A program made the translations under genes and the position numbers. The notes under the pieces were generated by a model, which searched no databases, was not told the DNA's origin, and was given only the letters and a program-made list of their open reading frames with translations. From the NCBI RefSeq assembly GCF_044647545.1, contig NZ_CP172818.1: a stretch of DNA of 64,000 nt; one strand, given 5' to 3'. The DNA is from Escherichia coli. GTDB taxonomy: Bacteria > Pseudomonadota > Gammaproteobacteria > Enterobacterales > Enterobacteriaceae. The first letter of the stretch is position 1. The number at the start of each line of letters is the position of its first letter. Positions 6,317 to 56,140 of this stretch are shown here, piece by piece.

Positions 6317-10182
<3,866 letters not shown>

Positions 10183-10235: not shown

Positions 10236-11162
10236 TTAACTGCGTGGGTTGCCGAAAATTTCTAAAAATCCGCTGATTTCCGGCCTGCGCTGGGTAAACA
10301 AGGTCACAATATCTTCTATCGCTTTGCCGCTGCCAAATTTGCGCCATGCCAGACTCAATGGTGAAGGAGGGCGCATCGTTGGGATTACCCGGCTGACCAG
10401 TTGTTGATTATCGATCATTGACTGGCAAAGTGATTTTGGCAAAAAACCAATGCCAACGCCCGCCAGATGGGCGGCGATTTTCGTTTCCATATCGGGAACA
10501 ATAATCTCTTTTTGCCCCGGCAATCGCCAGGCGACGCGTTTGGTTAGTGTGCGGGCGCTGTCTTCAATATTAACCGCCGGAAAGCGCCGCAACTGTGCTT
10601 CTGTTAGCGGCTCTTCAACGTTCGCCAGCGGATGATCCGCCGCCATGACAAAGCGCCATTGCACCGATCCTAAGGGATCAAGACTAAAGGTATTTGCCAG
10701 CGCCTCGGTTCCCGTGACGCCGATAGCCAGTGAAAAACCTTCGTATAATAGCGAATCCCAGACGCCCATATAGATTTGTCGGGAGATGTGAAACTGGGTA
10801 AAGGGGTAACGCTCATTCAGCCACGCCAGCAACTGGGCGACGGCCTGGGGGTTATAGAGCAGGTTGTTGATGACAATATTCACCTGGCGTTCCACGCCAT
10901 CATTCACCTGTTGCAGCTCGCTTGGCATACTTTCCAGCCAGCTCAGCCAGTCTCTGGCCTGGGAAAGTAGATGCTCGCCAGCCGCTGTCAACGTCACGCT
11001 GCGAGTCGTGCGGAAAAACAGCGCCACTCCGGTGTTCTCTTCCAGAAGTTTAATGCGATAACTGATCGTCGCCGTGGTTTTACATAATCGTTCTGCCGCT
11101 TTTGAAAAACTTCCTGTTTCAGCAACCGCAATGAAAGTCCGTAAGGTTTCTGGATCGAACAT
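10236..11162 (-). CDS. allS: LysR-family activator of allantoin catabolism AllS
   Basis: 308 aa LysR-type ORF with N-terminal HTH, divergent from allA. Confidence 0.9.
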
Positions 11163-11269
11163 CTTCAGGTATCCCCTTTTAAATCCGCAAGTTGCGTGAT
11201 TTTCTTATCCTCTGATTTATCAGTATTTTTACATGATAACCCTGTTCAATTTGTGGACTAAATCTAGTT

Positions 11270-11286
11270 TTGGAAAAATATTCCAA
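11270..11286. promoter_or_regulatory. Candidate AllR operator (TTGGAAAAATATTCCAA) in allS-allA divergent promoter region
   Basis: Near-palindrome with TTGGAA/TTCCAA half-sites, same architecture as the site upstream of gcl. Confidence 0.45.
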
Positions 11287-11391
11287 CTTTTGTATTGATG
11301 TTGTTCTCTTAAGGTTTTAGATTGCCTGTTATTGAAACCAAGCTGACCGGTCGGCGGTGGTTGAACGGAATTATGTTACAAGGACAAAAAG

Positions 11392-11874
11392 ATGAAACTT
11401 CAGGTATTACCGTTAAGTCAGGAAGCCTTTAGTGCTTATGGCGACGTAATCGAAACGCAGCAACGGGATTTTTTCCATATTAACAATGGCCTGGTGGAGC
11501 GTTACCACGATTTGGCGCTGGTTGAGATTCTTGAGCAAGACCGTACGCTTATCAGCATTAACCGAGCGCAACCGGCGAATCTGCCGCTGACCATTCACGA
11601 ACTCGAACGTCATCCGCTGGGTACTCAGGCCTTTATCCCGATGAAAGGTGAAGTGTTTGTGGTAGTCGTGGCGTTAGGTGACGACAAACCAGACCTGTCA
11701 ACGCTGCGGGCGTTTATTACCAACGGTGAACAGGGGGTGAATTACCATCGTAACGTCTGGCATCACCCACTTTTCGCCTGGCAGCGCGTCACCGATTTTC
11801 TGACCATCGATCGCGGCGGCAGTGACAACTGTGATGTTGAAAGTATTCCTGAACAGGAACTCTGTTTTGCGTGA
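11392..11874 (+). CDS. allA: Ureidoglycolate lyase AllA
   Basis: 160 aa ORF, position and length match. Confidence 0.9.
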
Positions 11875-11951
11875 CGCCTGCAACCGACTTGCATAAGATA
11901 AACGAATTGTTCATTGTTTATGCTCACTTGTAGGTCGGAGTTAACGTAGGT

Positions 11952-12767
11952 ATGACGGAAGTTAGACGGCGCGGCAGGCCAGGACAGGCGGAGCCTGTGG
12001 CACAGAAGGGCGCACAGGCGTTAGAGCGGGGAATTGCGATTCTGCAATATCTGGAAAAAAGTGGGGGAAGTTCGTCGGTTAGCGATATTTCTCTCAATCT
12101 GGATTTGCCGCTCTCCACGACCTTTCGCTTGCTGAAGGTTTTACAGGCAGCGGATTTTGTCTATCAGGACAGTCAGTTAGGCTGGTGGCATATAGGATTA
12201 GGTGTCTTTAACGTCGGTGCAGCGTACATCCATAACCGCGATGTCCTCTCCGTCGCCGGGCCGTTTATGCGCCGCCTGATGTTACTTTCCGGCGAAACGG
12301 TCAATGTCGCGATCCGTAACGGCAATGAAGCAGTATTAATTGGTCAGTTAGAGTGTAAATCGATGGTCAGGATGTGTGCGCCACTGGGCAGTCGTCTGCC
12401 GCTGCATGCTTCCGGTGCGGGCAAGGCGTTGCTTTATCCGCTGGCGGAAGAGGAGTTGATGAGCATCATTCTGCAAACCGGTTTGCAGCAGTTTACGCCA
12501 ACGACGCTTGTGGATATGCCCACCTTGCTGAAGGACCTGGAACAAGCGCGTGAACTGGGCTATACCGTAGATAAAGAAGAGCATGTTGTAGGTCTGAATT
12601 GCATAGCTTCAGCAATTTACGATGATGTCGGTAGCGTTGTTGCCGCTATCTCCATCTCCGGGCCTTCATCAAGACTGACAGAAGATCGTTTTGTCAGTCA
12701 GGGTGAGCTGGTCAGAGACACCGCCCGCGATATCAGCACGGCGTTGGGACTGAAAGCACATCCATAG
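11952..12767 (+). CDS. allR: IclR-family repressor AllR
   Basis: 271 aa IclR-type ORF with N-terminal HTH. Confidence 0.9.
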
Positions 12768-12778
12768 TGTCTGTCGCA

Positions 12779-12804
12779 TCCCGCTCTGCGGAGCGGGTTT
12801 TTTT
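12779..12804 (+). terminator. Rho-independent terminator after allR
   Basis: Hairpin CCCGCTC-TGCG-GAGCGGG followed by T7 run. Confidence 0.5.
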
Positions 12805-12819
12805 GACAAAATTTGAAAG

Positions 12820-12836
12820 TTGGAAAATTTTTCCAA
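12820..12836. promoter_or_regulatory. Candidate AllR operator (TTGGAAAATTTTTCCAA) upstream of gcl
   Basis: Perfect 8-bp inverted repeat around a central T, about 20 bp upstream of gcl start. Confidence 0.5.
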
Positions 12837-12856
12837 TTAATAGAGGTAGGAATAAA

Positions 12857-14638
12857 ATGGCAAAAATGAGAGCCGTTGACGCGGCAATGTATGTGCTGGA
12901 GAAAGAAGGTATCACCACCGCCTTCGGCGTTCCGGGAGCTGCAATCAATCCGTTCTACTCAGCGATGCGTAAGCACGGCGGTATTCGTCACATTCTGGCG
13001 CGTCATGTGGAAGGTGCTTCGCACATGGCGGAAGGTTATACCCGCGCAACGGCAGGGAATATCGGCGTATGTCTGGGGACTTCCGGTCCTGCGGGCACGG
13101 ACATGATCACCGCGCTCTATTCCGCTTCTGCTGATTCCATTCCTATTCTGTGCATTACCGGCCAGGCTCCGCGCGCCCGTCTGCATAAAGAAGATTTCCA
13201 GGCCGTTGATATTGAAGCAATTGCTAAACCGGTCAGCAAAATGGCGGTTACAGTTCGTGAAGCGGCGCTGGTGCCTCGTGTGCTGCAACAGGCATTTCAC
13301 CTGATGCGTTCTGGTCGTCCGGGTCCGGTACTGGTGGATTTACCGTTCGACGTTCAGGTTGCGGAAATCGAGTTTGATCCTGACATGTACGAACCGCTGC
13401 CGGTCTACAAACCTGCTGCCAGCCGTATGCAGATCGAAAAAGCTGTAGAAATGTTAATCCAGGCCGAACGTCCGGTGATTGTTGCCGGGGGCGGGGTAAT
13501 TAATGCTGACGCAGCTGCACTGTTACAACAGTTTGCTGAACTGACCAGCGTTCCGGTGATCCCAACGCTGATGGGCTGGGGCTGTATCCCGGACGATCAT
13601 GAACTGATGGCCGGGATGGTGGGTCTGCAAACCGCGCATCGTTACGGTAATGCAACGCTGCTGGCGTCCGACATGGTGTTTGGTATCGGTAACCGTTTTG
13701 CTAACCGTCATACCGGTTCGGTAGAGAAATACACCGAAGGGCGCAAAATCGTTCATATCGATATTGAGCCGACGCAAATTGGCCGCGTGCTGTGTCCGGA
13801 TCTCGGCATTGTCTCTGATGCTAAAGCGGCGCTGACGCTGCTGGTTGAAGTGGCGCAGGAGATGCAAAAAGCGGGTCGTCTGCCGTGTCGTAAAGAATGG
13901 GTCGCCGACTGCCAGCAGCGCAAACGCACTTTGCTGCGCAAAACCCATTTCGACAATGTGCCGGTGAAACCGCAGCGCGTGTATGAAGAGATGAACAAAG
14001 CCTTTGGTCGCGATGTTTGTTATGTCACCACCATTGGTCTGTCACAAATCGCTGCGGCACAAATGCTGCATGTCTTTAAAGACCGCCACTGGATCAACTG
14101 TGGGCAGGCAGGCCCGTTGGGCTGGACCATTCCGGCGGCGCTGGGCGTGTGTGCCGCTGATCCAGAGCGCAATGTGGTGGCGATTTCCGGTGACTTCGAC
14201 TTCCAGTTCCTGATTGAAGAATTAGCCGTTGGCGCACAGTTCAACATTCCGTACATCCATGTACTGGTCAATAACGCCTATCTCGGTCTGATTCGCCAGT
14301 CGCAGCGCGCGTTTGATATGGATTACTGCGTACAGCTCGCGTTCGAAAATATTAACTCCAGCGAAGTGAACGGTTACGGCGTCGACCACGTAAAAGTAGC
14401 GGAAGGTTTAGGTTGTAAAGCGATTCGCGTTTTCAAACCGGAAGATATTGCACCGGCCTTTGAACAGGCGAAAGCCTTAATGGCGCAATATCGGGTACCG
14501 GTAGTCGTGGAAGTTATTCTCGAGCGTGTGACCAATATTTCGATGGGCAGCGAACTGGATAACGTCATGGAATTTGAAGATATCGCCTATAACGCAGTGG
14601 ACGCACCGACTGAAACCTGCTTCATGCACTATGAATAA
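12857..14638 (+). CDS. gcl: Glyoxylate carboligase (ThDP enzyme)
   Basis: 593 aa from [16 protein letters not shown]; ThDP-binding fold. Confidence 0.95.
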
Positions 14639-25193: not shown

Positions 25194-25509
25194 CTGTCTT
25201 CCTTTTTAACGACGGTGTGAAGCATGACTGCAATTAACATACAGGGAAAATATCTGGATTATGTGATCCAGACAGGCAAAAAAATATAGTTAGAATTTAT
25301 TTGATAATCCGCTCGCTTTTAACCTGGTTTTTAAAACAACTATGCTTATTAAAAAATAACGCGTAATAGTCTGGCGGTTATTTGAATTCTTTTGTTAATA
25401 ATCCCTGTGTGATATTCATCACCTTATTTACTCGTTGTCATCGATACCGTAATCGCCACATTAACACTGCTCGTGCAATTGCCATGGGTGCAATTTTTAA
25501 GGAGTTGTT

Positions 25510-27177
25510 ATGATCCACGCCTTTATTCAAAAAGGGTGTTTTCAGGATTCGGTCAGTTTAATGATTATTTCACGAAAACTCAGCGAATCAGAAAATGTTG
25601 ATGATGTTTCCGTAATGATGGGTACGCCCGCCAATAAAGCGTTATTAGATACCACAGGTTTCTGGCATGACGATTTTAATAACGCCACGCCGAACGATAT
25701 TTGCGTGGCAATTCGTAGCGAAGCGGCGGATGCGGGGATCGCGCAGGCGATTATGCAGCAGCTTGAAGAGGCGCTAAAACAACTGGCGCAGGGGTCAGGC
25801 AGCAGCCAGGCGTTGACGCAGGTGCGTCGCTGGGACAGTGCCTGTCAGAAATTACCCGACGCCAGTCTGGCGCTGATTTCAGTGGCTGGCGAGTATGCGG
25901 CGGAGGTTGCGAACCAGGCGCTGGATCGCAACCTCAACGTGATGATGTTCTCCGATAACGTCACGCTGGAAGATGAAATCCAGCTCAAAACCCGCGCACG
26001 CGATAAAGGCTTGCTGGTGATGGGGCCAGACTGCGGTACGTCGATGATTGCCGCCACGCCGCTGGCTTTTGCTAACGTGATGCCGGAAGGCAACATTGGC
26101 GTCATTGGCGCTTCCGGTACCGGGATTCAGGAACTGTGCTCGCAGATTGCGCTTGCAGGGGAGGGAATTACCCACGCGATTGGTCTTGGCGGGCGCGACC
26201 TCAGCCGTGAAGTGGGCGGCATCAGTGCGCTAACGGCGCTGGAAATGTTATGCACCGATGCGAAAAGCGAAGTGCTGGCATTTGTTTCAAAACCACCTGC
26301 CGAAGTTGTGCGTCTGAAAATTGTTAATGCCATGAAAGCAACCGGCAAACCGACGGTGGCGCTGTTTTTAGGTTATACCCCGGCGGTGGCCCGCGACGAG
26401 AATGTCTGGTTTGCCTCCTCGCTTGATGAGGCCGCACGCCTGGCTTGCCTGCTTTCACGCGTCACGGCGCGACGTAACGCAATAGCACCTGTCAGCAGCG
26501 GATTTATTTGCGGTTTGTATACCGGCGGTACGCTGGCTGCTGAAGCGGCGGGATTACTTGCCGGACACCTTGGCGTGGAAGCCGACGATACCCATCAACA
26601 TGGCATGATGCTCGACGCCGACGGACATCAGATCCTCGACCTGGGCGATGATTTTTACACCGTCGGGCGTCCCCATCCGATGATCGACCCGACCTTACGC
26701 AACCTGTTAATTGCCGATCTCGGCGCTAAACCGCAAGTGCGCGTGTTGCTGCTTGATGTCGTGATTGGCTTCGGTGCGACTGCCGATCCTGCCGCCTCGC
26801 TGGTGAGCGCCTGGCAAAAAGCCTGTGCCGCGCGTCCAGACAATCAACCACTGTATGCCATTGCCACGGTGACAGGCACCGAACGTGACCCGCAATGCCG
26901 CTCGCAACAAATCGCCACGCTGGAAGATGCGGGGATCGCGGTCGTGAGTTCGCTGCCGGAAGCCACCTTGCTGGCGGCAGCGTTAATTCATCCGCTCTCG
27001 CCTGCCACACAGCAACACACACCGTCATTACTGGAAAACGTCGCCGTGATTAACATCGGATTACGCAGCTTTGCGCTGGCGCTACAAAGCGCCAGCAAAC
27101 CGGTTGTGCATTACCAATGGTCGCCAGTCGCCGGCGGCAATAAAAAACTGGCTCGTTTATTAGAACGTTTGCAATAA
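25510..27177 (+). CDS. fdrA: FdrA, acyl-CoA synthetase/succinyl-CoA synthetase alpha-like protein
   Basis: 555 aa ORF with CoA-binding GASGTG motif. Confidence 0.85.
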   Translation: MIHAFIQKGCFQDSVSLMIISRKLSESENVDDVSVMMGTPANKALLDTTGFWHDDFNNATPNDICVAIRSEAADAGIAQAIMQQLEEALKQLAQGSGSSQALTQVRRWDSACQKLPDASLALISVAGEYAAEVANQALDRNLNVMMFSDNVTLEDEIQLKTRARDKGLLVMGPDCGTSMIAATPLAFANVMPEGNIGVIGASGTGIQELCSQIALAGEGITHAIGLGGRDLSREVGGISALTALEMLCTDAKSEVLAFVSKPPAEVVRLKIVNAMKATGKPTVALFLGYTPAVARDENVWFASSLDEAARLACLLSRVTARRNAIAPVSSGFICGLYTGGTLAAEAAGLLAGHLGVEADDTHQHGMMLDADGHQILDLGDDFYTVGRPHPMIDPTLRNLLIADLGAKPQVRVLLLDVVIGFGATADPAASLVSAWQKACAARPDNQPLYAIATVTGTERDPQCRSQQIATLEDAGIAVVSSLPEATLLAAALIHPLSPATQQHTPSLLENVAVINIGLRSFALALQSASKPVVHYQWSPVAGGNKKLARLLERLQ

Positions 27178-29272: not shown

Positions 29273-30162
29273 AAACACTGGTTGTGGCTCTTGGGGGCAA
29301 CGCCTTACTCCAGCGCGGTGAGGCGCTGACGGCAAAAAATCAATATCGCAATATTGCCAGTGCTGTGCCCGCGCTGGCGCGCCTGGCCCGTTCTTATCGT
29401 CTGGCGATTGTTCACGGCAACGGGCCGCAGGTGGGGCTGCTGGCGTTACAGAATCTGGCGTGGAAAGAGGTAGAACCGTATCCGCTGGATGTACTGGTGG
29501 CGGAAAGCCAGGGGATGATTGGCTATATGCTGGCGCAGAGCTTGAGCGCACAGCCGCAGATGCCGCCTGTCACGACGGTGCTGACGCGCATTGAGGTTTC
29601 GCCTGATGATCCGGCGTTTTTGCAGCCAGAGAAGTTTATTGGTCCGGTTTATCAGCCAGAAGAACAAGAGGCACTGGAAGCGGCTTACGGCTGGCAGATG
29701 AAACGTGATGGTAAATATTTACGCCGGGTGGTGGCGTCTCCGCAACCGCGTAAAATTCTCGACAGCGAAGCCATCGAGTTGTTGCTCAAAGAGGGGCATG
29801 TGGTGATTTGCAGTGGCGGCGGCGGTGTGCCTGTGACGAAAGACGGGGTAGGGAGTGAAGCAGTGATTGATAAAGATCTCGCCGCTGCGTTGCTCGCCGA
29901 GCAGATTAATGCCGATGGACTGGTGATCCTCACCGATGCTGATGCGGTATATGAAAACTGGGGAACGCCGCAGCAACGTGCCATTCGCCATGCCACACCG
30001 GATGAGTTAGCGCCATTTGCCAAAGCCGATGGTTCGATGGGGCCGAAGGTAACGGCGGTGAGTGGCTATGTCAGAAGCCGTGGTAAACCTGCGTGGATTG
30101 GGGCGTTATCGCGGATTGAAGAGACGCTGGCGGGCGAAGCGGGGACCTGTATTTCGCTGTAG
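29269..30162 (+). CDS. ybcF: Carbamate kinase-like protein
   Basis: Amino-acid kinase fold ([10 protein letters not shown] ... [11 protein letters not shown]); start chosen at MKTLVV. Confidence 0.85.
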
Positions 30163-30169
30163 TGATGGG

Positions 30170-30390
30170 CACCAGGCAATTGGCACATCTAGCCTGATGC
30201 GATGCTGGCGCGTCTTATCAGGTCTACAGGCGGTGTCGGAACGGTAGGCCGGATAAGGCGTTCACGCCGCATCCGGCAATCGGCACACCATGCCTGATGC
30301 GATGCTGGCGCATCTTATCAGGCCTACAGTCGGTGTTGGAACGGTAGGCCGGATAAGGCGTTCACGCCGCATGCGGCAAGAAAATGAGCA
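30170..30390. repeat. Tandem REP/BIME cluster (two ~120 bp units)
   Basis: Two near-identical copies containing GCCTGATGCGATGCTGGCGC...TAGGCCGGATAAGGCGTTCACGCCGCATCCGGCA. Confidence 0.75.
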
Positions 30391-30394
30391 TCAA

Positions 30395-31462
30395 TTAACT
30401 GAACTTGCTCTGCGCCCAAATCACGCCGCTAGCATATTCTGGCGGCAGCAGCGGGATTAAGGCTTCCAGCGTCGCGGTCAGACGCGATGTGTCGCTGTCG
30501 GTCAAATTTAAATGCCCCACTTTACGCCCCGGACGGACTTCTTTGTCGTACCAGTGCAGATGCACCAGCGGCAGTTTCAGCCAGTCATAATTCACATCGC
30601 TACCAATCAGGTTGATCATCACCGACGGACTATTCACCACCGGTTGTGGTAACGGCAGATCGGTAATCGCCCGCAGATGCAGCTCAAACTGGCTGATGCT
30701 GGCACCGTTTTGCGTCCAGTGCCCACTGTTATGCACACGCGGAGCCAGTTCGTTGATCAGCAGACCTTGTGGGGTGACAAAACACTCCATCGCCATCACG
30801 CCCACATAGCCCAGCTCCTGCATAATCGCCGACAGCATCTCTTCGGCCTGCGCCTGCTGCTGCGCGTTGGCCTGCGGGAAAGCGACGCTGGTGCGCAAAA
30901 TACCGTCCTGATGCAGGTTATGCGTCAGCGGATAAAACACGGTACTACCATCAAAGCCGCGCGCGCCAACCAGCGACACTTCACCAGAGAAGTTTATGCC
31001 CTGCTCGACAATACATTCGCCGTAGCATTCAGTCGGTAACTGTTCGGTTTCATCGGCGCGTAAACGCCATTGACCGCGTCCGTCATAGCCACCAGTGCGA
31101 CGCTTAACAATCGCCAGCTCACCTAAACGCTTAAACACCGCAGGCCACTCGCTGCGATCGGCAAGTAACTGCCACGGTGCGGTCGGCAGGTGGAGCTTAT
31201 CGAAAAGCTGCTTCTGAGTCAGACGGTCAGCAATAATCGGGAACACATCGCGGTTCACAAAGGCCGGATGGCGCGCCAGCTCGCGGGTTAATGCGGTTTC
31301 CGGCCAGCGTTCGATCTCAGCGGTAATCACACTTTGTTGAAAAGGCACCGCCGCCGGTTCAGCGTCCAGCCCGACTGGCCAGACAGCAATGCCTAACGGT
31401 TCGCCTGCCTGACGCAGCATACGGCCTAACTGCCCGTTCCCGAGGACGCAAACCTGTTTCAT
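30395..31462 (-). CDS. purK: N5-carboxyaminoimidazole ribonucleotide synthase
   Basis: 355 aa ATP-grasp ORF upstream-coupled to purE. Confidence 0.95.
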
Positions 31463-31968
31463 GCCGCACCTCGCGGGTCCGGGTTTTCCAGCACTTCGTC
31501 AGTCTGGGCTTTGCGCCAGTCATTCAGACGCTGGTGCAGTTCTTTATCATGAGTCGCAAGAATTTGTGCTGCCAGTAACGCCGCGTTTGCCGCGCCAGCT
31601 TTACCAATCGCCAGCGTACCCACCGGAATGCCGCGCGGCATTTGTACGATGGAGTAGAGACTATCGACACCGCTCAGTGCGGCGCTCTGTACTGGCACGC
31701 CCAGCACTGGCACCAGCGTTTTGGTGGCAATCATGCCAGGCAGGTGCGCTGCGCCGCCTGCGCCCGCAATAATCACCTGATAACCGTTCTCTTCGGCGCT
31801 TTCGGCGAAGCTGAACAGTTTATCGGGGGTGCGGTGAGCAGAAACCACTTCAACGTGGTGCGGGACATTCAGGATTTCGAAGATTTCGGCGGCGAACTGC
31901 ATGGTAGCCCAGTCGCTTTTGGACCCCATCACGATGGCGACACGCGCCGGATTATTGCGGGAAGACAT
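31459..31968 (-). CDS. purE: N5-CAIR mutase
   Basis: 169 aa from [19 protein letters not shown]. Confidence 0.95.
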
Positions 31969-32085
31969 GCGTCTTAAAACTCCTGTGGTACACAACTCTC
32001 GGCTTTAGAGGGCACAGAGAATAGCACGGAAAGAGAGCAAGGAAAACGGTTGCGTGGCTGTGAAATCAGCAAAGTTGCGGGTTTT

Positions 32086-32808
32086 TTAAAAAGGAAAATG
32101 AATCAGCTCAACGTCATCCGCCGTGACTTTTACCATTGAACCTTCAGTATGCCAGGCACCCAGCACGACGCGGAAAGCAGGTTGCTGATTGGCGATAAGT
32201 TCATGTACTGCCGGGCGATGGGTATGCCCGTGAATCAGCCATTGCACCTGATGTTTTTCCATCGCACTGACCACCGCGTTTTGGTTAACGTCCATGATCG
32301 CCAGCGATTTACTGCTGTTGGCTTCTTTGCTGTTCGCTCGCATTCGCGCGGCAATGCGTTTGCGCACAAACAACGGCAGGGCGAGGAATAGCGTTTGCAG
32401 CCAGGGTTTGTGGACTTTGGCGCGAAAAGCCTGATAACCGGCGTCATCGGTGCACAGCGTGTCGCCATGCATAATCAATACCCGGCGACCATACAGTTCG
32501 AGCACCTTTTCTTCCGGCAATAACGTCATGCCGCTTTCACGGGCAAAGCGTTTGCCGAGCAGAAAATCACGGTTGCCATGAATGAAATAACAGGGAACAC
32601 CGGAATCGGACACCGCTTTGATCGCTGCCGCCATCTGGCGATGGAGTGGGTTGGGATCGTCGTCGCCAATCCACGCTTCAAACAGATCGCCAAGAATATA
32701 CAGCGCGTCGGCCTTGCGGGCTTCCCCCGCTAAAAAACGCAGAAAACCGGCGGTGATCGCCGGTTCTTCCGCGCAGAGATGAAGATCTGCAATAAAGAGT
32801 GTCGCCAC
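32086..32808 (-). CDS. lpxH: UDP-2,3-diacylglucosamine hydrolase
   Basis: Calcineurin-like phosphoesterase motifs (DLHL, GDLF, GNRD). Confidence 0.9.
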
Positions 32809-32810
32809 GA

Positions 32811-33305
32811 TTACTCGCTAACGGTCACGCTTTCAATGATAACGTCTTCTTTTGGCACGTCCTGGTGCATACCGCTACGACCGGTTGCCACACCTTTGAT
32901 TTTGTCTACCACGTCCATGCCTTCAACCACTTCAGCAAACACGCAGTAACCCCAACCTTGCAGGCTTTCGCCAGAGAAGTTCAGGAAGTCGTTATCAACC
33001 ACGTTGATGAAGAACTGTGCAGTTGCAGAGTGCGGTGCCTGAGTACGGGCCATTGCCAGTGTACCACGGGTATTTTTCAGACCGTTGTTGGCTTCGTTTT
33101 TGATCGGTTCTTTGGTGGCTTTTTGTTTCATGCCCGGTTCAAAACCGCCGCCCTGAATCATAAAGCCGTTGATAACACGGTGGAAAATGGTGTTGTTGTA
33201 AAAACCTTCGCGGCAGTAGTCCAGGAAGTTTTTAACTGTTTCAGGTGCTTTATCGTCAAAAGTTTTGATGACAATATCGCCGTGATTGGTGTGGAAAGTA
33301 ACCAT
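32811..33305 (-). CDS. ppiB: Peptidyl-prolyl cis-trans isomerase B (cyclophilin)
   Basis: 164 aa cyclophilin ORF. Confidence 0.95.
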
Positions 33306-33478
33306 TTTTGCATCCTGTTCCGTTTGATTGGTGCTTCAACCCGGTTCGGGTCATATATAGGGTGGTGTTATAGCATAACCGCACGATCGGATCATCACGC
33401 AATGTATGCTGATTCGCGCGGGAAATATGGGTATTATACGCAACTCAATTACCCACACATGTCTAAACGGAATCTTCG

Positions 33479-34864
33479 ATGCTAAAAATCTTCAATACTC
33501 TGACACGCCAAAAAGAGGAATTTAAGCCTATTCACGCCGGGGAAGTCGGCATGTACGTGTGTGGAATCACCGTTTACGATCTCTGTCATATCGGTCACGG
33601 GCGTACCTTTGTTGCTTTTGACGTGGTTGCGCGCTATCTGCGTTTCCTCGGCTATAAGCTGAAGTATGTGCGCAACATTACCGATATCGACGACAAAATC
33701 ATCAAACGCGCCAATGAAAATGGCGAAAGCTTTGTAGCGCTGGTGGATCGCATGATCGCCGAAATGCACAAAGATTTTGATGCTTTGAATATTCTGCGCC
33801 CGGATATGGAGCCGCGCGCGACGCACCATATCGCAGAAATTATTGAACTCACTGAACAACTGATCGCCAAAGGTCACGCGTATGTGGCGGACAACGGCGA
33901 CGTGATGTTCGACGTCCCGACCGATCCGACCTATGGCGTGCTGTCGCGTCAGGATCTCGACCAGCTGCAGGCAGGCGCGCGCGTTGACGTGGTCGACGAC
34001 AAACGCAACCCGATGGACTTCGTTCTGTGGAAGATGTCGAAAGAGGGCGAACCGAGCTGGCCGTCTCCGTGGGGCGCGGGCCGTCCTGGCTGGCACATTG
34101 AGTGTTCGGCAATGAACTGCAAACAGTTGGGTAACCACTTTGATATCCACGGCGGCGGTTCTGACCTGATGTTCCCGCACCACGAAAACGAAATCGCGCA
34201 GTCCACCTGTGCCCATGATGGCCAGTATGTGAACTACTGGATGCACTCCGGAATGGTGATGGTTGACCGCGAGAAGATGTCCAAATCGCTGGGTAACTTC
34301 TTTACCGTGCGCGATGTGCTGAAATACTACGACGCGGAAACCGTGCGTTACTTCCTGATGTCGGGCCACTATCGCAGCCAGCTGAACTACAGCGAAGAGA
34401 ACCTGAAGCAGGCGCGTGCGGCGCTGGAGCGTCTCTACACTGCGCTGCGCGGCACAGATAAAACTGTTGCGCCTGCCGGTGGCGAAGCGTTTGAAGCGCG
34501 CTTTATTGAAGCGATGGACGACGATTTCAACACCCCGGAAGCCTATTCCGTGCTGTTTGATATGGCCCGTGAAGTGAACCGTCTGAAAGCAGAAGATATG
34601 GCAGCGGCGAATGCAATGGCATCTCACCTGCGTAAACTTTCCGCCGTATTGGGCCTGCTGGAGCAAGAACCAGAAGCGTTCCTGCAAAGCGGCGCGCAGG
34701 CAGACGACAGCGAAGTGGCTGAGATTGAAGCGTTAATTCAACAGCGTCTGGATGCCCGTAAAGCGAAAGACTGGGCGGCGGCAGATGCGGCGCGTGATCG
34801 TCTTAACGAGATGGGGATCGTGCTGGAAGATGGCCCGCAAGGGACCACCTGGCGTCGTAAGTAA
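33479..34864 (+). CDS. cysS: Cysteinyl-tRNA synthetase
   Basis: Class I HIGH (HIGHGR) and KMSKS motifs. Confidence 0.95.
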
Positions 34865-44853: not shown

Positions 44854-44972
44854 TTTCTTTCCTCTGTTATGCCATCACCCGCGCTCACCTGGACAGTATG
44901 CAGCGGAGACTGAAGCGCCGCAATGCAGGCTTGCCGTGTTGTGAGGTACCCGGATATTATCGTGAGGATGCG

Positions 44973-45311
44973 TCATCGCCATTGCTCCCCAAATACAAAA
45001 CCAATTTCAGCCAGTGCCTCGTCCATTTTTTCGATGAACTCCGGCACCATCTCGTCAAAACTCGCCATGTACTTTTCATCCCGCTCAACCACGACATAAT
45101 GCAGTCCTTCACGCTTCATACGCGGGTCATAGTTGGCAAAGTACCAGGCATCTTTTCGTGTCACCCACATGCTGTACTGCACCTGGGCCATGTAAGCCGA
45201 CTTTATGGCCTCGAAACCACCGAGCCGGAACTTCATGAAATCCCGGGAGGTACGAGTATTGCCGGAAGCGCGGGCTGTATCCGGATGCAGAGTCTTATCC
45301 GTGGAAATCAA
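44973..45311 (-). pseudogene. exoD: Lambda exonuclease-like C-terminal fragment
   Basis: 112-codon ORF with exo-like C-terminus, no intact N-terminus. Confidence 0.55.
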
Positions 45312-45349
45312 ACGCGCACTACTGGCTGGTTACCAACCTGTATCAGAAC

Positions 45350-45562
45350 ATGCGGGCCAATGCGTTGACTGACGCGGAATTACGGCGCAAGGCTGCCGAT
45401 GAACTGTCCTGTATGACCGCACGAATTAACCGTGGTGAGGCTATACCTGAACCAGTAAAACAACTTCCTGTCATGGGCGGTAGACCTCTAAATCGTGCAC
45501 AGGCTCTGGCGAAGATCGCAGAAATCAAAGCTAAGTTTGGGCTGAAAGGAGCAAGGGTATGA
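45350..45562 (+). pseudogene. peaD: Replication protein P-like C-terminal fragment, stop overlapping ren start
   Basis: 70-codon ORF ending in ATGA overlap with ren, the lambda P-ren junction arrangement. Confidence 0.5.
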
Positions 45563-45707
45563 CGGGCAAAGAGGCAATTATTCATTACCTGGGGACTCAT
45601 AAGAAATTCTGTGCGCAGGACGTTGCCGCGGTAACAGGCGCAACGGTAATCTGATCTTACCCAGCAATAGTGGACACGCGGCTAAGTGAGTAAACTCTCA
45701 GTCAGAG

Positions 45708-46016
45708 GTGACTCACATGACAAAAACAGTATCAACCAGTAAAAAACCCCGTAAACAGCATTCGCCTGAATTTCGCAGTGAAGCCCTGAAGCTTGCTGAA
45801 CGCATCGGTGTTACTGCCGCAGCCCGTGAACTCAGCCTGTATGAATCACAACTCTACAACTGGCGCAGTAAACAGCAAAATCAGCAGACGTCTTCTGAAC
45901 GTGAACTGGAGATGTCTACCGAGATTGCACGTCTCAAACGCCAGCTGGCAGAACGGGATGAAGAGCTGGCTATCCTCCAAAAGGCCGCGACATACTTCGC
46001 GAAGCGCCTGAAATGA
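45708..46016 (+). CDS. insE: IS3 transposase OrfA
   Basis: 102 aa [35 protein letters not shown]. Confidence 0.9.
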
Positions 46017-46879
46017 AGTATGTCTTTATTGAAAAACATCAGGCTGAGTTCAGCATCAAAGCAATGTGCCGCGTGCTCCGGGTGGCCCGCAGCGGCTGGT
46101 ATACGTGGTGTCAGCGGCGGACAAGGATAAGCACGCGTCAGCAGTTCCGCCAACACTGCGACAGCGTTGTCCTCGCGGCTTTTACCCGGTCAAAACAGCG
46201 TTACGGTGCCCCACGCCTGACGGATGAACTGCGTGCTCAGGGTTACCCCTTTAACGTAAAAACCGTGGCGGCAAGCCTGCGCCGTCAGGGACTGAGGGCA
46301 AAGGCCTCCCGGAAGTTCAGCCCGGTCAGCTACCGCGCACACGGCCTGCCTGTGTCAGAAAATCTGTTGGAGCAGGATTTTTACGCCAGTGGCCCGAACC
46401 AGAAGTGGGCAGGAGACATCACGTACTTACGTACAGATGAAGGCTGGCTGTATCTGGCAGTGGTCATTGACCTGTGGTCACGTGCCGTTATTGGCTGGTC
46501 AATGTCGCCACGCATGACGGCGCAACTGGCCTGCGATGCCCTGCAGATGGCGCTGTGGCGGCGTAAGAGGCCCCGGAACGTTATCGTTCACACGGACCGT
46601 GGAGGCCAGTACTGTTCAGCAGATTATCAGGCGCAACTGAAGCGGCATAATCTGCGTGGAAGTATGAGCGCAAAAGGTTGCTGCTACGATAATGCCTGCG
46701 TGGAAAGCTTCTTTCATTCGCTGAAAGTGGAATGTATCCATGGAGAACACTTTATCAGCCGGGAAATAATGCGGGCAACGGTGTTTAATTATATCGAATG
46801 TGATTACAATCGGTGGCGGCGGCACAGTTGGTGTGGCGGCCTCAGTCCGGAACAATTTGAAAACAAGAACCTCGCTTAG
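46013..46879 (+). CDS. insF: IS3 transposase OrfB (DDE)
   Basis: 288 aa DDE integrase-core ORF in -1 frame relative to orfA. Confidence 0.9.
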
Positions 46880-47189
46880 GCCTGTGTCCATATTACGTGG
46901 GTAGGATCAACCAGCATAAATCAGGCTGCGGCTAAAATGGCACGGGCAGGTCTTCTGGCTATCGAAGGTAAGGTCTGGCGAACGGTGTATTACCGGTTTG
47001 CTACCAGAGAAGAACGGGAAGGAAAGGTGAGCACGAATCTGATTTTTAAGGAGTGTCGCCAGAGTGCCGCGATGAAACGGGTATTGAGGGTATATAAAAG
47101 AACATCAATGGGTACACAATGATGAAACAGGTGAGTTGAGTTCAAACTGTAGTACAATTCTCTCCAGTTTGAACAGGAAAGAATATTCT

Positions 47190-47522
47190 ATGAACCCTTA
47201 TATTTATCTTGGTGGTGCAATACTTGCAGAGGTCATTGGTACAACCTTAATGAAGTTTTCAGAAGGTTTTACACGGTTATGGCCATCTGTTGGTACAATT
47301 ATTTGTTATTGTGCATCATTCTGGTTATTAGCTCAGACGCTGGCTTATATTCCTACAGGGATTGCTTATGCTATCTGGTCAGGAGTCGGTATTGTCCTGA
47401 TTAGCTTACTGTCATGGGGACTTTTCGGCCAACGGCTGGACCTGCCAGCCATTATAGGCATGATGTTGATTTGTGCCGGTGTGTTGGTTATTAATTTATT
47501 GTCACGAAGCACACCACATTAA
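47190..47522 (+). CDS. emrE: Small multidrug resistance efflux protein EmrE
   Basis: 110 aa from MNPYIYLGGAILAEVIGTT with conserved membrane-embedded Glu14. Confidence 0.9.
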   Translation: MNPYIYLGGAILAEVIGTTLMKFSEGFTRLWPSVGTIICYCASFWLLAQTLAYIPTGIAYAIWSGVGIVLISLLSWGLFGQRLDLPAIIGMMLICAGVLVINLLSRSTPH

Positions 47523-47553
47523 AAATAATTTGTTTCTAAACGACTAAAATATG

Positions 47554-47587
47554 GAGGCTCTTATATTTATATGAGCCTCGTTTTATG
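47554..47587 (+). terminator. Rho-independent terminator after emrE
   Basis: GAGGCTC-12 nt loop-GAGCCTC followed by GTTTT. Confidence 0.5.
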
Positions 47588-47778
47588 CTTTTTGTTAATG
47601 TCTTTATTTTTTTATGTATTCTTTTGTGCTTTCAAGATTATGGCGTAAGAAAATTGCAATACGATTATTGTTGTATATTCAAGATAATGTGACCTTAATT
47701 GTCTTTTTAAATAAAAATTAAACAAAAATTATATCCCACCACTAAGGTTTATAAAAGCATACGTTAGCAGGTGTCACC

Positions 47779-49305
47779 ATGAAAAAAGCCATAGCATATA
47801 TGCGATTTTCATCACCAGGTCAGATGTCTGGCGACTCATTAAACCGACAGAGAAGACTTATTGCTGAATGGTTAAAGGTAAATAGTGATTATTATCTTGA
47901 TACCATAACATATGAAGATTTAGGATTAAGTGCATTCAAAGGAAAGCATGCACAATCAGGAGCTTTTTCGGAATTTTTAGATGCTATAGAGCATGGTTAT
48001 ATATTGCCAGGAACTACATTGTTAGTTGAAAGTCTGGACAGACTTTCAAGAGAAAAAGTCGGTGAAGCGATTGAACGTCTGAAATTGATTTTGAATCACG
48101 GTATTGATGTTATAACTCTTTGCGACAATACAGTCTATAATATTGACTCTTTGAATGAGCCATATTCATTAATAAAAGCCATACTTATAGCACAAAGGGC
48201 AAATGAAGAAAGCGAGATAAAGTCAAGTCGGGTTAAATTATCATGGAAGAAAAAACGGCAGGATGCACTGGAATCAGGTACGATTATGACGGCGTCTTGT
48301 CCGAGATGGCTCTCCTTAGATGACAAAAGAACGGCTTTTGTTCCAGACCCCGACAGGGTGAAAACTATTGAGCTAATTTTTAAACTCAGGATGGAAAGGC
48401 GCTCATTGAATGCAATAGCCAAGTATTTAAATGATCATGCTGTAAAGAATTTCTCAGGAAAAGAAAGTGCATGGGGACCTTCTGTAATTGAAAAATTATT
48501 AGCGAATAAAGCTCTGATAGGTATATGCGTACCTTCATATCGTGCAAGAGGTAAAGGAATAAGTGAAATCGCTGGCTATTATCCCAGAGTCATATCAGAT
48601 GATTTGTTTTACGCTGTACAGGAAATTCGGTTGGCACCTTTTGGTATTAGCAATAGTAGCAAAAATCCTATGTTGATAAATCTACTTCGAACAGTTATGA
48701 AGTGCGAGGCTTGTGGTAATACCATGATTGTTCATGCGGTATCTGGAAGTTTGCATGGCTATTATGTTTGTCCGATGAGAAGACTGCATCGATGTGACAG
48801 GCCATCAATAAAGAGAGATTTGGTTGATTATAATATCATTAATGAGTTGCTTTTTAATTGTAGTAAAATCCAACCAGTTGAAAACAAGAAAGATGCTAAT
48901 GAAACTTTAGAGTTGAAAATTATTGAGCTCCAGATGAAAATTAATAATTTAATTGCTGCATTATCTGTTGCGCCTGAAGTTACCGCTATAGCAGAAAAAA
49001 TCAGAGTATTAGATAAGGAATTACGAAGGGCTTCTGTATCATTAAAAACTTTGAAGAGTAAAGCGGTGAGTTCACTTGGTGATTTTCATGCTATTGACTT
49101 AACCAGTAAAAATGGGCGAGAGCTATGTCGTACACTTGCCTATAAAACATTCGAAAAAATCATAATCAATACAGATAATAAAACCTGTGATATCTATTTT
49201 ATGAATGGCATTGTTTTTAAACACTATCCTTTAATGAAAACAATATCCGCCCAGCAGGCGATAAGTACTCTCAAATATATGGTTGATGGTGAGGTTTATT
49301 TTTGA
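47779..49305 (+). CDS. ybcK: Large serine recombinase-like protein
   Basis: N-terminal resolvase catalytic domain (AYMRFSSPGQ), recombinase domain and Cys-rich zinc ribbon. Confidence 0.85.
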   Translation: MKKAIAYMRFSSPGQMSGDSLNRQRRLIAEWLKVNSDYYLDTITYEDLGLSAFKGKHAQSGAFSEFLDAIEHGYILPGTTLLVESLDRLSREKVGEAIERLKLILNHGIDVITLCDNTVYNIDSLNEPYSLIKAILIAQRANEESEIKSSRVKLSWKKKRQDALESGTIMTASCPRWLSLDDKRTAFVPDPDRVKTIELIFKLRMERRSLNAIAKYLNDHAVKNFSGKESAWGPSVIEKLLANKALIGICVPSYRARGKGISEIAGYYPRVISDDLFYAVQEIRLAPFGISNSSKNPMLINLLRTVMKCEACGNTMIVHAVSGSLHGYYVCPMRRLHRCDRPSIKRDLVDYNIINELLFNCSKIQPVENKKDANETLELKIIELQMKINNLIAALSVAPEVTAIAEKIRVLDKELRRASVSLKTLKSKAVSSLGDFHAIDLTSKNGRELCRTLAYKTFEKIIINTDNKTCDIYFMNGIVFKHYPLMKTISAQQAISTLKYMVDGEVYF

Positions 49306-49500
49306 GTAATAATCTTTTTTACGTCGTGCTATAGTAAGAAAGTGCAAGACAGAATTAATTATCTTTGACGAAACTTAATGGGTAATTACTTTGTTTGCTC
49401 CCACAAGCGAGTTTTGTACGGCTGTATTGGGGTAGTAAATGAGCTATACAATCTTAATCATTTGTTAGGTGAGAACTCTTGGTCGCAGATTCAAATACTG

Positions 49501-49550
49501 AAAATACGTGACAAATTATTATGAGCAAAATGGTGTATGTCACGTATTTT
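49501..49550. repeat. Perfect 13-bp inverted repeat (AAAATACGTGACA / TGTCACGTATTTT) with 24-bp spacer
   Basis: Read directly in ybcK-ybcL intergenic region. Confidence 0.6.
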
Positions 49551-49762
49551 GAATGGTAGGTTAAAAAATAACACCGACTTTCGTAGGTATTACTAATAAT
49601 AAAGCAGAGTTTTTAGATAGTATCAATGTGCTTTGTGTATATTGTGGCAAATAATTGGGTTGCTGAGGGGTAGAATGTGATTGCTTTTGCATGAACACTT
49701 TATGCATAATGAGATAAAGGAATATCAAATAAAGAACGATAGGTCATAACAAAGAGGTTTTT

Positions 49763-50312
49763 ATGAAAACACTTATCGTTTCAACTGTATTGGCATTCAT
49801 AACATTTTCTGCGCAGGCTGCAGCATTTCAGGTCACTAGTAATGAAATAAAAACAGGAGAGCAACTTACAACGTCTCATGTCTTTCTCGATTTGGGTGTG
49901 AAGGTGGTAATACATCGCCCTCATTAACCTGGTCTGGTGTTCCTGAAGGTACCAAAAGCTTTGCCGTAACTGTATATGATCCAGATGCACCTACAGGCAG
50001 TGGTTGGTGGCATTGGACTGTTGTTAATATTCCAGCAACAGTAACATATTTTCCGTTGATGCAGGGAGACGTGATGGAACAAAACTGCCGACTGGTGCTG
50101 TTCAAGGCCGAAATGATTTTGGCTATGCTGGGTTTGGTGGCGCATGTCCTCCTAAAGGAGATAAACCACATCATTACCAGTTTAAAGTATGGGCTCTAAA
50201 AACTGAAAAGATTCCTGTAGATTCTAACTCCAGCGGAGCGTTAGTTGGTTATATGCTTAATGCTAATAAAATCGCAACCGCTGAGATAACACCAGTTTAT
50301 GAGATAAAGTAG
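49763..50312 (+). pseudogene. ybcL: PEBP/RKIP-family periplasmic protein gene disrupted by two single-base frameshifts
   Basis: Signal peptide frame stops after 54 codons; [13 protein letters not shown] segment in -1 frame; [10 protein letters not shown] segment in a further -1 frame; total 550 bp. Confidence 0.75.
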
Positions 50313-50321
50313 GGTGAGAGT

Positions 50322-51119
50322 ATGCTGGCAAGAGGTAAGACTAACTTAAAGATCGAAGAAATACGGATGCATAAACATCATGAGATTCATAGGGTTAAGC
50401 CTCTTATGCCAGCTTTGTGTCGTATCCGTCAGGGAAAGAAAGTTATCAATTGGGAGACGCATACTTTAACTGTTGATAATAATCAAATAATATTATTTCC
50501 TTGTGGTTATGAATTTTATATTGAGAATTATCCTGAAGCAGGGCTTTATCTTGCAGAAATGCTTTACTTACCCATTGATTTAATTGAGAGTTTCCAAAAA
50601 CTTTATACGGTAACTGATCAAATACGTAACAAAACAAGTTTCTTTTTACCTCAGAATCCTGAGTTAATATATTGTTGGGAGCAACTAAAAACATCTGTTT
50701 CCCGAGGCTTCTCAACTAAAATTCAGGAGCACTTAGCAATGGGCGTTCTACTTTCGTTAGGAGTGAATCATGTTAATCATTTACTTTTATCATATAGTAA
50801 ACAATCATTGATAAGTCGTTGTTATAACCTGCTGCTATCCGAACCCGGCACAAAATGGACAGCAAACAAGGTTGCTCGATATCTCTACATTTCTGTTTCT
50901 ACATTACATCGCCGTCTAGCAAGCGAGGGGGTAAGTTTCCAAAGTATACTGGACGATGTGAGGTTAAATAATGCGTTGTCTGCTATACAAACGACGGTAA
51001 AACCTATAAGCGAGATTGCCAGAGAAAATGGTTATAAGTGTCCTTCTCGTTTTACTGAAAGATTTCATAATCGTTTTAATATAACACCAAGAGAGATAAG
51101 AAAAGCTTCCAGAGAGTAA
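50322..51119 (+). CDS. ybcM: AraC-family transcriptional regulator
   Basis: C-terminal AraC HTH ([26 protein letters not shown]). Confidence 0.8.
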
Positions 51120-51333
51120 AAGTGTTTTAAGAAGGAGCAATTCTATCGATTTTGATTTGCGATAATCAACTCGCCATAATCATGTCATCGGAGCCTGAAC
51201 AACTCCGGTGACTTCTGCGCTAAACGGGGACGTTTATGCGCACACACAATCCAAACTCTCTTCTCCCTCCACAGATGCAGAAATGCACCTGCGATATATT
51301 GTATCCAGCGTTTGACCTCTGCGGAGGTGAAGC

Positions 51334-51789
51334 GTGAATCTCCCACAAGATGGCATCAAATTACATCGCGGTAACTTCACCGCTATCGGTCGGCAGATCC
51401 AGCCTTATCTGGAGGAGGGCAAATGCTTTCGCATGGTGCTTAAACCGTGGCGTGAGAAACGCAGTCTTTCCCAGAATGCACTCAGCCACATGTGGTACAG
51501 CGAAATCAGTGAATACCTCATCAGCAGGGGTAAAACGTTCGCTACTCCAGCTTGGGTAAAAGATGCTCTCAAACACACATATCTCGGTTATGAAACCAAA
51601 GACCTGGTTGATGTCGTAACCGGTGATATCACCACTATCCAGTCGTTACGCCATACCTCCGATCTTGATACCGGAGAGATGTATGTCTTCCTGTGTAAGG
51701 TTGAAGCCTGGGCGGTGAATATTGGCTGCCACCTGACTATTCCGCAGAGCTGCGAGTTCCAGCTGCTCCGCGACAAGCAGGAGGCGTAA
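51334..51789 (+). CDS. ybcN: Prophage protein YbcN
   Basis: 151 aa ORF at head of nin-like gene block. Confidence 0.75.
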
Positions 51790-51959
51790 TGGCTACACCG
51801 CTTATTCGTGTCATGAACGGACACATCTACAGAGTACCAGATCGTCGTAAGCGTAAACCGGAGCTGAAGCCTTCCGAAATACCAACACTGCTCGGATATA
51901 CCGCCAGCCTGGTTGATAAAAAATGGTTGCGACTGGCAGCAAGGAGGAATCATGGCTGA
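51789..51959 (+). CDS. ninE: NinE-like protein
   Basis: 56 aa [21 protein letters not shown]..., start overlaps ybcN stop. Confidence 0.7.
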   Translation: MATPLIRVMNGHIYRVPDRRKRKPELKPSEIPTLLGYTASLVDKKWLRLAARRNHG

Positions 51960-52242
51960 TTTGAGAAAAGCAGCGCGTAGTCGGGAATGCCAGGTAAGAA
52001 TCCCTGGCGTATGTAATGGCAACCCTGAAACGTCTGTACTGGCACATATCCGGCTGACTGGATTGTGCGGCACCGGTACCAAACCGCCAGACCTGATTGC
52101 CACCATTGCATGTTCTGCCTGCCACGACGAAATCGACCGCCGCACACATTTTGTCGATGCTGCATATGCAAAAGAATGCGCGCTGGAAGGTATGGCGAGA
52201 ACACAGGTTATCTGGCTGAAAGAGGGGGTTATTAAGGCGTGA
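51952..52242 (+). CDS. ybcO: Prophage protein YbcO
   Basis: 96 aa Cys-rich ORF overlapping ninE end. Confidence 0.75.
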
Positions 52243-52601
52243 ATACCTACAGCATCACATTACCCTGGCCTCCGAGCAATAATCGCTATTACCGCCATAA
52301 TCGCGGGCGCACGCACGTCAGCGCAGAGGGGCAGGCATACCGCGATAACGTCGCCCGAATCATTAAAAACGCAATGCTGGATATCGGCCTGGCTATGCCT
52401 GTGAAAATCCGCATTGAGTGCCACATGCCGGATCGCCGTCGCCGTGACCTGGATAATCTGCAAAAAGCCGCTTTTGACGCACTCACTAAAGCAGGTTTCT
52501 GGCTGGATGATGCTCAGGTCGTTGATTACCGCGTTGTGAAGATGCCTGTTACCAAAGGTGGGAGGCTGGAACTGACCATCACCGAAATGGGGAATGAATG
52601 A
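52239..52601 (+). CDS. rusA: Holliday junction resolvase RusA
   Basis: 120 aa ORF with RusA catalytic Asp cluster. Confidence 0.9.
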
Positions 52602-52738
52602 TGTTTGAGTTTTATATGGCAGAACGTCTTCGCCACCGCTGGGGGCGTCTGCGCTTATATCGTTTCCCCGGTTCTGTTTTGACCGATTACCGAATACTGA
52701 AGAATTACGCCAAAACCCTGACAGGAGCAGGAGTATGA
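52598..52738 (+). CDS. ylcG: Small prophage protein YlcG
   Basis: 46 aa ORF with start overlapping rusA stop. Confidence 0.55.
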
Positions 52739-52823
52739 AGTCAGAGATAACAATCAACTAATACTGTTTCGTTGATTTTTGCTTGTAATTGGCGTTCTGG
52801 TCTGATTTTTGTGGAGTAAGTTG

Positions 52824-53207
52824 ATGCGTGATATTCAGATGGTTCTTGAGCGTTGGGGAGCGTGGGCGGCTAATAATCATGAAGATGTGACCTGGTCGTC
52901 CATTGCCGCCGGTTTTAAGGGATTAATTACTTCAAAAGTAAAATCTCGCCCACAATGTTGTGACGATGACGCGATGATCATTTGCGGGTGCATGGCCCGT
53001 CTGAAAAAGAACAACAGCGATTTGCATGATTTATTGGTGGACTATTATGTCGGCGGCATGACTTTTATGGCGCTTGCACGTAAGCATGGGCGATCTGATT
53101 GTTGGGTTGGCAGGATGCTTCAGAAAGCTGAGGGCGTAGTGGAGGGTATGCTGATGGTGTTGGATCTCCGATTGGAGATGGATGTCGTTGTTAATAACTC
53201 TAATTAA
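52824..53207 (+). CDS. quuD: Lambda Q-like late antiterminator
   Basis: 127 aa from [14 protein letters not shown] with Cys-rich zinc motif. Confidence 0.85.
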
Positions 53208-53458
53208 TATGCCAATTGTTTACTAAAAATTATTAAAAATGGGGCGTTGAGACGCCCCCAAAAATAAAGGGTAATATATAACAGAAGGTTTATATAGTTA
53301 GAAGCAAGGTTGTGCTTCTAAAGGAAGTGGCTTGAGGGAGCCACTTATATGTTGGGGAGGCAACGCCTCCCGCAACATATCTTTTTCGTAATCAGATTAG
53401 AACTGGTAAACCAGACCTACAGCAACGATGTCATCAGTGCTTACACCGAGTGCTTTAG

Positions 53459-54653
<1,195 letters not shown>

Positions 54654-56110
54654 TTAGTGAAGTCATTTTTGTCAAGCAGGTTGATTTTGTAATCAACGAA
54701 AGTAGACATATTTTTGTTGAAGTAATAGGTTGCACCTACATCAACATATTTGACTAAGTCCTGATCGCCCCATACTCCAAGATCCTTACCTTTAGATTGC
54801 AGGTAAGCAACGGACGGACGCAGACCGAAATCGAACTGATATTGTGCAACAGCTTCGAAGTTTTGGGCTTTATTAGCAACGAAGTGATCAGCAAATACAG
54901 TCATATTCTGGGTTTCAGAATAGGTAGTGGCCAGGTAAATGTTGTTAGCGTCATATTTCAGACCTGCGGCCCAAACTTCTGCATTTTTACCGGAAGCAAA
55001 TACTTCAGGAAGAACTTTCCCTGCATTAACTTGAGTGTCGGTACGATCAGATTTCGCATAAGTTGCACCGATACCGAATCCTTCGTATTCATAGGTAGCA
55101 GAGAAACCGAAGCCATCACCGTTACCTTCAGTGTAGTTATCGAAATCGCTACGATCGTTTTTGCCTTGGTACTGAATCGCAAAATCAAGACCATCAACCA
55201 GGCCAAGAAATCATAGTTACGGTAGGTTGCAACACCGTTGGTACGACCATTCATGAAGTTGTCAGCGGAAGCCCAGGAATCGCCACCCCATTCAACTAAC
55301 ATATCGGTATAAGCTGCGGCATCATAAGCAACACCGTAGTTACGGCCATAGTCAAATGACCACTCGTTATATTTCAAACCGGCGAAGGTTAAACGGGTTT
55401 TTTCCTGGTTTTCACCTTCGGGCTTGCTGGCGTCGAGGTTGTATTCAAACTGACCAAAACCAGTCAGTTCGCTGGTGATTTGGGTTTCACCTTTGAAGCC
55501 AAGACGGGCATAAGTAGTATCACCATCATCTGCATCATTAGAGGAGAAGTAGTGCTTAGCATTAACTTTCCCGTACAGATCCAGCTTGTTACTGTCTTTA
55601 TTATAAATTTCAGCTGCCTGAGCAGACATCGCCATTAGTACTGATGCAGCTACAGCAGAAATTGCCACTGTTAATTTTTTCATCGTGAGCCCTTTTTTTG
55701 AACTATTATTAAAAAATGATGTCACTGCGCGATAAATATTCATCTAATCAATGTGATTATTTCAAGATGTAAGTTTTGGTTTCTCGTTTGATTTGTGAAG
55801 TAGATCTCTATTTTTATCTGAACTTTTTTCTATCGAATCCTATTCATGGCTCTTGGCTGAATAAAAATAAATCTATTAGCCAATTTATATTAACGGCTGT
55901 TATTTATAAGTGCTCTATAATTTGAAGGTTCAATTTAAACCGGCTAAAAATAACACTGGAAATTATTTTTTGGTTATTTGTTGAGATTTGCTTATGTATT
56001 TGTAGTGGTGTTTTCAATACTCGGTAGCATTCTCTCAAATATCATTTAGTGGTTTACGTACGTAAAAAATTGGTTATGCTGTTAAGAGTGGTTACTTCGT
56101 CACACAGCTT

Positions 56111-56140
56111 AAACCCGCCGTCGAGCGGGTTTTTCCATTT
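56111..56140 (+). terminator. tR-prime-like terminator upstream of holin gene
   Basis: AAACCCGC-CGTCGA-GCGGGTTT followed by T run. Confidence 0.5.

Follow-up and report, generated by a model that had tools for sequence, protein, structure and literature searches.

Two palindromes built from TTGGAA and TTCCAA half-sites flank allA and allR in the allS-allA-allR-gcl part of the Escherichia coli chromosome, raising the question of whether both serve as operators of the intervening gene's product, the IclR-family repressor AllR, and of how a repressor bound there would act on the neighbouring promoters. We addressed this in a 64,000-nt stretch of an E. coli genome, referred to as the window, in which we determined the sequence and position of the palindromes, their match to the published AllR motif, their uniqueness, their conservation and the identity of the regulator gene. 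We conclude, with a probability of about 0.95, that the two palindromes are AllR operators. AllR operators at allS-allA and gcl are already known, and what follows sets the sites of the window against that knowledge.

The region was found by megablast in 5405 of 5426 complete E. coli genomes. Annotation and the window ORFs confirmed the assignments of allS, allA, allR and gcl made by the first-pass annotation, as well as its placing of the palindromes on either side of allA-allR (Table 1). Both palindromes are present exactly as it quoted them, and the span it gave (11269-12836) is right at its end but starts one base too far to the left. The gcl ORF, when called mechanically, starts at a GTG at 12767 and spans both the terminator and the operator; since cross-species conservation begins only at ATG 12857, we take this annotated start to be the real one. 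In the terminator shared by allR and the sRNA AllZ, the GCGGG and TTTTT blocks are conserved, the K-12 allZ annotation ends at this structure, and its T-run extends into the putative -35 element of gcl.

Table 1 Coordinates of genes, operators and promoter elements around allA and allR in the window
Feature	Position	Strand	Description
allS	10236-11162	-	LysR-type activator of allD/allF; AllS equivalog model 643 bits; divergent from operator 1
AllR operator 1 (site 1)	11270-11286		TTGGAAAAATATTCCAA; allS-allA divergent control region
allA core promoter (predicted hexamers)	11295-11331	+	-35 TTGATG 11295-11300, 17-nt spacer, -10 TAGATT 11318-11323, start A 11331
allA	11392-11874	+	ureidoglycolate lyase; transcribed rightwards from operator 1; window ORFs
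allR	11952-12767	+	IclR-family repressor gene between both operators; annotation and window ORFs
Intrinsic terminator of allR and sRNA AllZ	12780-12804	+	7-bp stem, 6 G-C pairs, T-run
Putative gcl core promoter	12803-12831	+	-35 TTGACA 12803-12808, 17-nt spacer, -10 AATTTT 12826-12831 inside operator 2
AllR operator 2 (site 2)	12820-12836		TTGGAAAATTTTTCCAA; gcl promoter
gcl	12857-14638	+	glyoxylate carboligase; first gene of the operon repressed from operator 2

Strain FDAARGOS_497 gives the best match to the window at the operator region, but the two are not collinear throughout: the ybbP-mnmH gap differs (8701-9032), and 44948-64000 shows only patchy similarity to that strain, with an integrase and lambdoid prophage genes following a tRNA-Arg gene. 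The stretch 30000-34000 (purK, purE, lpxH, ppiB, cysS) contains a short multi-copy element that megablast detects at 34 places in the median E. coli genome and that is probably a REP-type repeat.

Site 1 sits almost midway in the 229-nt divergent spacer: 107 nt separate it from the start codon of allS and 105 nt from that of allA. Site 2 lies 52 nt past the allR stop codon and 20 nt ahead of the gcl ATG. From centre to centre the two sites are 1550 bp apart and enclose allA and allR. Site 2 is a perfect 8-1-8 palindrome; site 1 is symmetric at 7 of its 8 arm positions. Exact TTGGAA-N5-TTCCAA occurs twice in the 64 kb, where 0.004 occurrences are expected. When up to 3 mismatches to the 17-mer were allowed, only sites 1 and 2 matched, each on both strands, against an expectation of 0.41 matches; in 100 dinucleotide shuffles the count never reached 4 at this threshold. 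A chance origin of the two palindromes is thereby excluded. We then scored the whole window with a weight matrix made from the orthologous sites of 20 other species, the window itself being left out. Site 2 scored 32.8 bits and site 1 32.7 bits, and the next best position in the 64 kb scored 4.6 bits. Shuffled windows gave a mean best score of 5.4 bits; because the third-ranked score of the window lies below this value, we conclude that the number of sites in the window is exactly two, with no third of lesser strength. The whole-window motif scan proposed with the first-pass annotation thus returned the two sites it had named. Its statement that no third copy lies upstream of allD was borne out as well: the allD-fdrA/allF spacer (25194-25509) is not represented among the 15 best-scoring sites of the matrix scan, and a search of 25208-25523, nearly all of that spacer, for the half-sites TTGGAA, TTCCAA, TGGAA and TTCCA found none.

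The same two positions are occupied well beyond E. coli. A scan of one genome per species yielded allR orthologues in 22 further loci, of which the 20 with both flanks were used. Citrobacter, Klebsiella, Raoultella, Superficieibacter, Buttiauxella, Izhakiella, Atlantibacter and Providencia are among these 20 species, whose AllR proteins are 66-91% identical to that of the window. Upstream of allA, and again in the allR-gcl spacer, a palindrome occurs at the same position in 20 of 20 species. Both half-sites are exact in 36 of the 40 orthologous sites, and the remaining 4 carry a single half-site mismatch. With the window included (21 species), column conservation reaches 96% in site 1 against about 51% in the rest of the spacer, and 94% in site 2 against 56-59% in its flanks; the surrounding non-coding DNA of the two spacers is 50-59% conserved overall. 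Positions 1-6 of the half-site are nearly invariant (78 to 80 of 80 instances at each position), the five bases at the centre are almost always A or T, and the outer flanks favour T/G on one side and C/A on the other, as in the published motif. The two operators are co-conserved, 1541-1636 bp apart across species. Both AllR sites are thus strict phylogenetic footprints across Enterobacterales, out to Providencia.

We draw on the literature for the binding of AllR, for the repression it exerts and its response to glyoxylate, and for the start site of allA. The published AllR motif is KTTGGAAWAWTWTTCCAAC, as listed in Table 1 of Suvorova and Gelfand 2021 (PMC8222616), which cites Rintoul et al. 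2002. Taken with one flanking base per side (11269-11287; flanks T and C), site 1 agrees with this motif at 19 of 19 positions; site 2 (12819-12837) agrees at 18 of 19, the mismatch being the last base, T for C. PMC13300388 quotes a 37-nt sequence, AAATCTAGTTTTGGAAAAATATTCCAACTTTTGTATT, which it credits to Rintoul et al. 2002 as the AllR recognition site; this was the only article in which a search of literature text for the operator sequences gave a match. The 37-mer has a single exact match in the window, at 11260-11296, symmetric about the site 1 centre at 11278. Binding of AllR to the allS-allA control region and to the gcl promoter, reduced by glyoxylate, has been reported (PMC12535856; PMC11323563), and an AllR site upstream of gcl has been marked against protein-occupancy data (bioRxiv paper). 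The identification of the palindromes as AllR operators, and of the allA and gcl promoters as the points of repression, therefore agrees with published work. When the palindromes are compared with published AllR sites, site 1 is supported by the 37-nt match, with no placement elsewhere, and site 2 is supported as far as binding at the gcl promoter.

The absence of a third palindrome at allD has an explanation in the published genetics, because allD and allF are controlled by AllS and not by AllR (PMC12535856; PMC11323563). No AllR site is predicted for allF, and an allF reporter was unchanged by deletion of allR, a deletion that derepresses the pathway (PMC12535856).

The sites also correspond to those of K-12 (Rintoul et al. 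2002, Walker et al. 2006, Hasegawa et al. 2008) in genes, positions and sequence. The allS-allA spacer is identical to that of K-12 over all 229 nt, with the published 37-nt site present exactly. The gcl operator differs at its central base, A in K-12 and T here, and is otherwise identical; this base cannot be symmetric because the palindrome has an odd length. One further change lies 3 nt downstream of the gcl operator.

The gene between the palindromes is intact in this genome and encodes a protein with the Pfam HTH_IclR and IclR_C domains. It scores 619 bits with the NCBIfam AllR equivalog model (cutoff 406) and 248 bits with the IclR model, below the cutoff of 380; the BhcR model also failed. 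It matches PDB 1TF1, the AllR effector domain, with E = 2e-110. One AllR dimer would read the two TTGGAA half-sites of each 17-bp site, with five A/T bases between them. Glyoxylate, the product of AllA, would release AllR from the DNA, and this release would induce allA, the gcl operon and allS, after which AllS would activate allD and allF, which have no AllR site. The regulatory steps of this scheme are published: AllR repression of allS, allA and gcl, relief by glyoxylate, and activation of allD/allF by AllS (PMC12535856; PMC11323563).

We then asked how each operator lies relative to its promoter. K-12 transcription start sites were converted to window positions via the K-12 locus, using an offset between the two K-12 sequence versions that we take to be 776 bp. 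The Cappable-seq start of allA, U00096.2 531,614 (+) (PMC4782308 supplement), corresponds on this conversion to the start listed in Table 1, and it fits a conserved TTGATG-17-TAGATT arrangement, in which we assign the hexamers from the sequence and from conservation of TTG.../TA..TT in 21 species. Relative to this start, operator 1 has its centre at -53 and its ends at -61 and -45, and the 37-nt recognition stretch quoted above extends to the -35 element. At allA, bound AllR would thus hinder polymerase by clashing with its contacts at and upstream of -35. Occlusion is less certain here, the -53 centre being further upstream than a simple occluding repressor site. Operator 1 is the single operator between the divergent genes, and by published genetics AllR represses allS too. 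The allS-allA operator controls allS besides allA, which adds to the first-pass annotation.

On the allS side, two promoter candidates were considered, an extended -10 element TGTAAAAAT at 11233-11225 (-) and TAGATT at 11266-11261 (-); neither was convincing. Two more blocks in this spacer, outside the AllR site and the allA promoter, are conserved across the 21 species, at 11213-11235 and 11252-11256 (TGATTT then TATTTTT.CAT; TGTGG). These may be part of the allS promoter or serve another regulator.

For gcl, we infer the -35 and -10 elements from the sequence together with a TTG-type hexamer that is conserved at this position. TTGACA-17-AATTTT is the only promoter geometry that keeps the Shine-Dalgarno sequence in the gcl transcript. 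The AATTTT hexamer has 3 of 6 consensus positions, and its assignment as the -10 element is weak. A consensus promoter scan did not report this putative promoter and gave nothing usable at either operator; its sole match nearby, TTTCCA-17-TAAAAT at 12830-12858, was rejected because transcription from it would begin inside gcl. The Cappable-seq list has no plus-strand entry for a gcl start between U00096.2 533,000 and 533,299 (PMC4782308 supplement), which is expected for a repressed promoter but proves nothing. With the elements placed in this way, operator 2 would lie over the -10 and almost reach the transcription start, so that AllR would keep RNA polymerase off the promoter, a case of classical occlusion. 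Steric repression relieved by glyoxylate is the likely mechanism at both promoters.

For allR itself, Cappable-seq starts at 11906 and 11924 (scores 27 and 44, against 2 for the allA start) reveal promoters of its own downstream of allA. The matrix scan found no AllR palindrome in the allA-allR spacer (11875-11951), and there is thus no sequence sign of direct allR autoregulation in that spacer. A very strong internal start, with a score of 410, lies at window 12573 (PMC4782308 supplement). The sRNA AllZ (b4831 in the K-12 annotation) occupies about 12570-12804 (+), running inside and past the 3' end of allR to the allR terminator upstream of the gcl operator; it has been verified by northern blot, with grcA listed as a partner (PMC8175672).

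Could the two operators be engaged together rather than singly? One AllR tetramer might bridge them as a cooperative unit, looping out the 1.55 kb that hold allA and allR. The arguments for such an arrangement are geometric. Each control region has a single palindrome, with no second site 14-45 nt away in any of the 21 species and all secondary scores negative, and the co-conservation of the two operators at 1541-1636 bp would fit as well. AllR is itself reportedly a tetramer, in work ascribed to Walker in 2006. IclR-family regulators bind as dimers or tetramers, and more than half of the groups of this family have tandem sites spaced by 18-22 nt, a pattern interpreted as binding of a tetramer (Suvorova and Gelfand 2021, PMC8222616). 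The tandem-palindrome operators of tetrameric members such as TtgV resemble the AllR sites in belonging to the same family, in being palindromic and in lying 20-80 nt upstream of the regulated gene (PMC8222616), but the AllR sites have no second palindrome 18-22 nt away in 21 species. Against bridging, the operators are just as far apart as allA and allR together are long, a distance that varies by 95 bp with no pattern, and each operator lies at its own promoter, which is sufficient to explain repression. The 37-nt recognition stretch, as quoted in PMC13300388, suggests that protein covers the flanking DNA locally, and no link between AllR and looping was found in the literature searched. We consider a bridging tetramer improbable. 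If it did exist, the repressor's own gene would lie inside the repression loop and the control of allS/allA would be linked to that of gcl, and bridging would explain the lack of the tandem second palindrome common in the IclR family.

A second alternative concerns the protein rather than its arrangement: IclR, the paralogous repressor of the glyoxylate shunt, might bind the palindromes instead of or besides AllR. The two sets of sites are indeed alike. The IclR consensus TGGAAATNATTTCCA (PMC8222616) is matched by site 1 at 11 of 14 specified positions and by site 2 at 12 of 14, the mismatches falling in the central pentamer, and an A/T-rich TGGAA-N5-TTCCA core is common to the IclR box and the AllR sites, so that the sequence taken by itself is compatible with IclR occupancy. 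The regulators are close relatives within one family, both responsive to glyoxylate: the IclR model does give AllR 248 bits, and the glyoxylate-binding residues are conserved (PMC11323563). However, the central pentamer differs between the two kinds of site, and the AllR sites add the outer T/A of TTGGAA/TTCCAA and the K and C flanks, which are specific to the AllR motif and nearly invariant in the 80 half-site instances. IclR boxes serve other target genes, at the aceBAK and iclR promoters, whereas the sites studied here are located at allS-allA and gcl; the palindromes accompany allR in every species examined, and the protein encoded beside them passes the AllR model and not, at its score, the IclR model. 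The literature assigns both promoters to AllR, deletion of which derepresses the pathway (PMC12535856), and no report of IclR at gcl or allA was found in the literature examined. Binding by IclR is thus very unlikely, and less likely still than a bridging tetramer.

Finally, it is extremely unlikely that the palindromes are not protein sites at all but nucleic-acid hairpins (leader RNA or cruciform) or chance A/T-rich inverted repeats: short RNA hairpins can form (-4.4 kcal/mol for site 1 and -7.1 kcal/mol for site 2), but they are weak (z-scores -1.3 and -2.2), site 1 lies upstream of the allA start site, the half-sites are invariant across species with no covariation while arm position 7/11 varies without keeping complementarity, and chance would supply 0.004 such sites per 64 kb.

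As AllR operators, the two palindromes belong to textbook knowledge of the E. coli allantoin regulon: they have been footprinted, entered in motif collections and used in biosensors. Our finding confirms the annotation and has little significance beyond that. The additions made here are modest: a count of exactly two AllR sites in the window, the status of both as strict footprints, and the presence of one palindrome in each control region.
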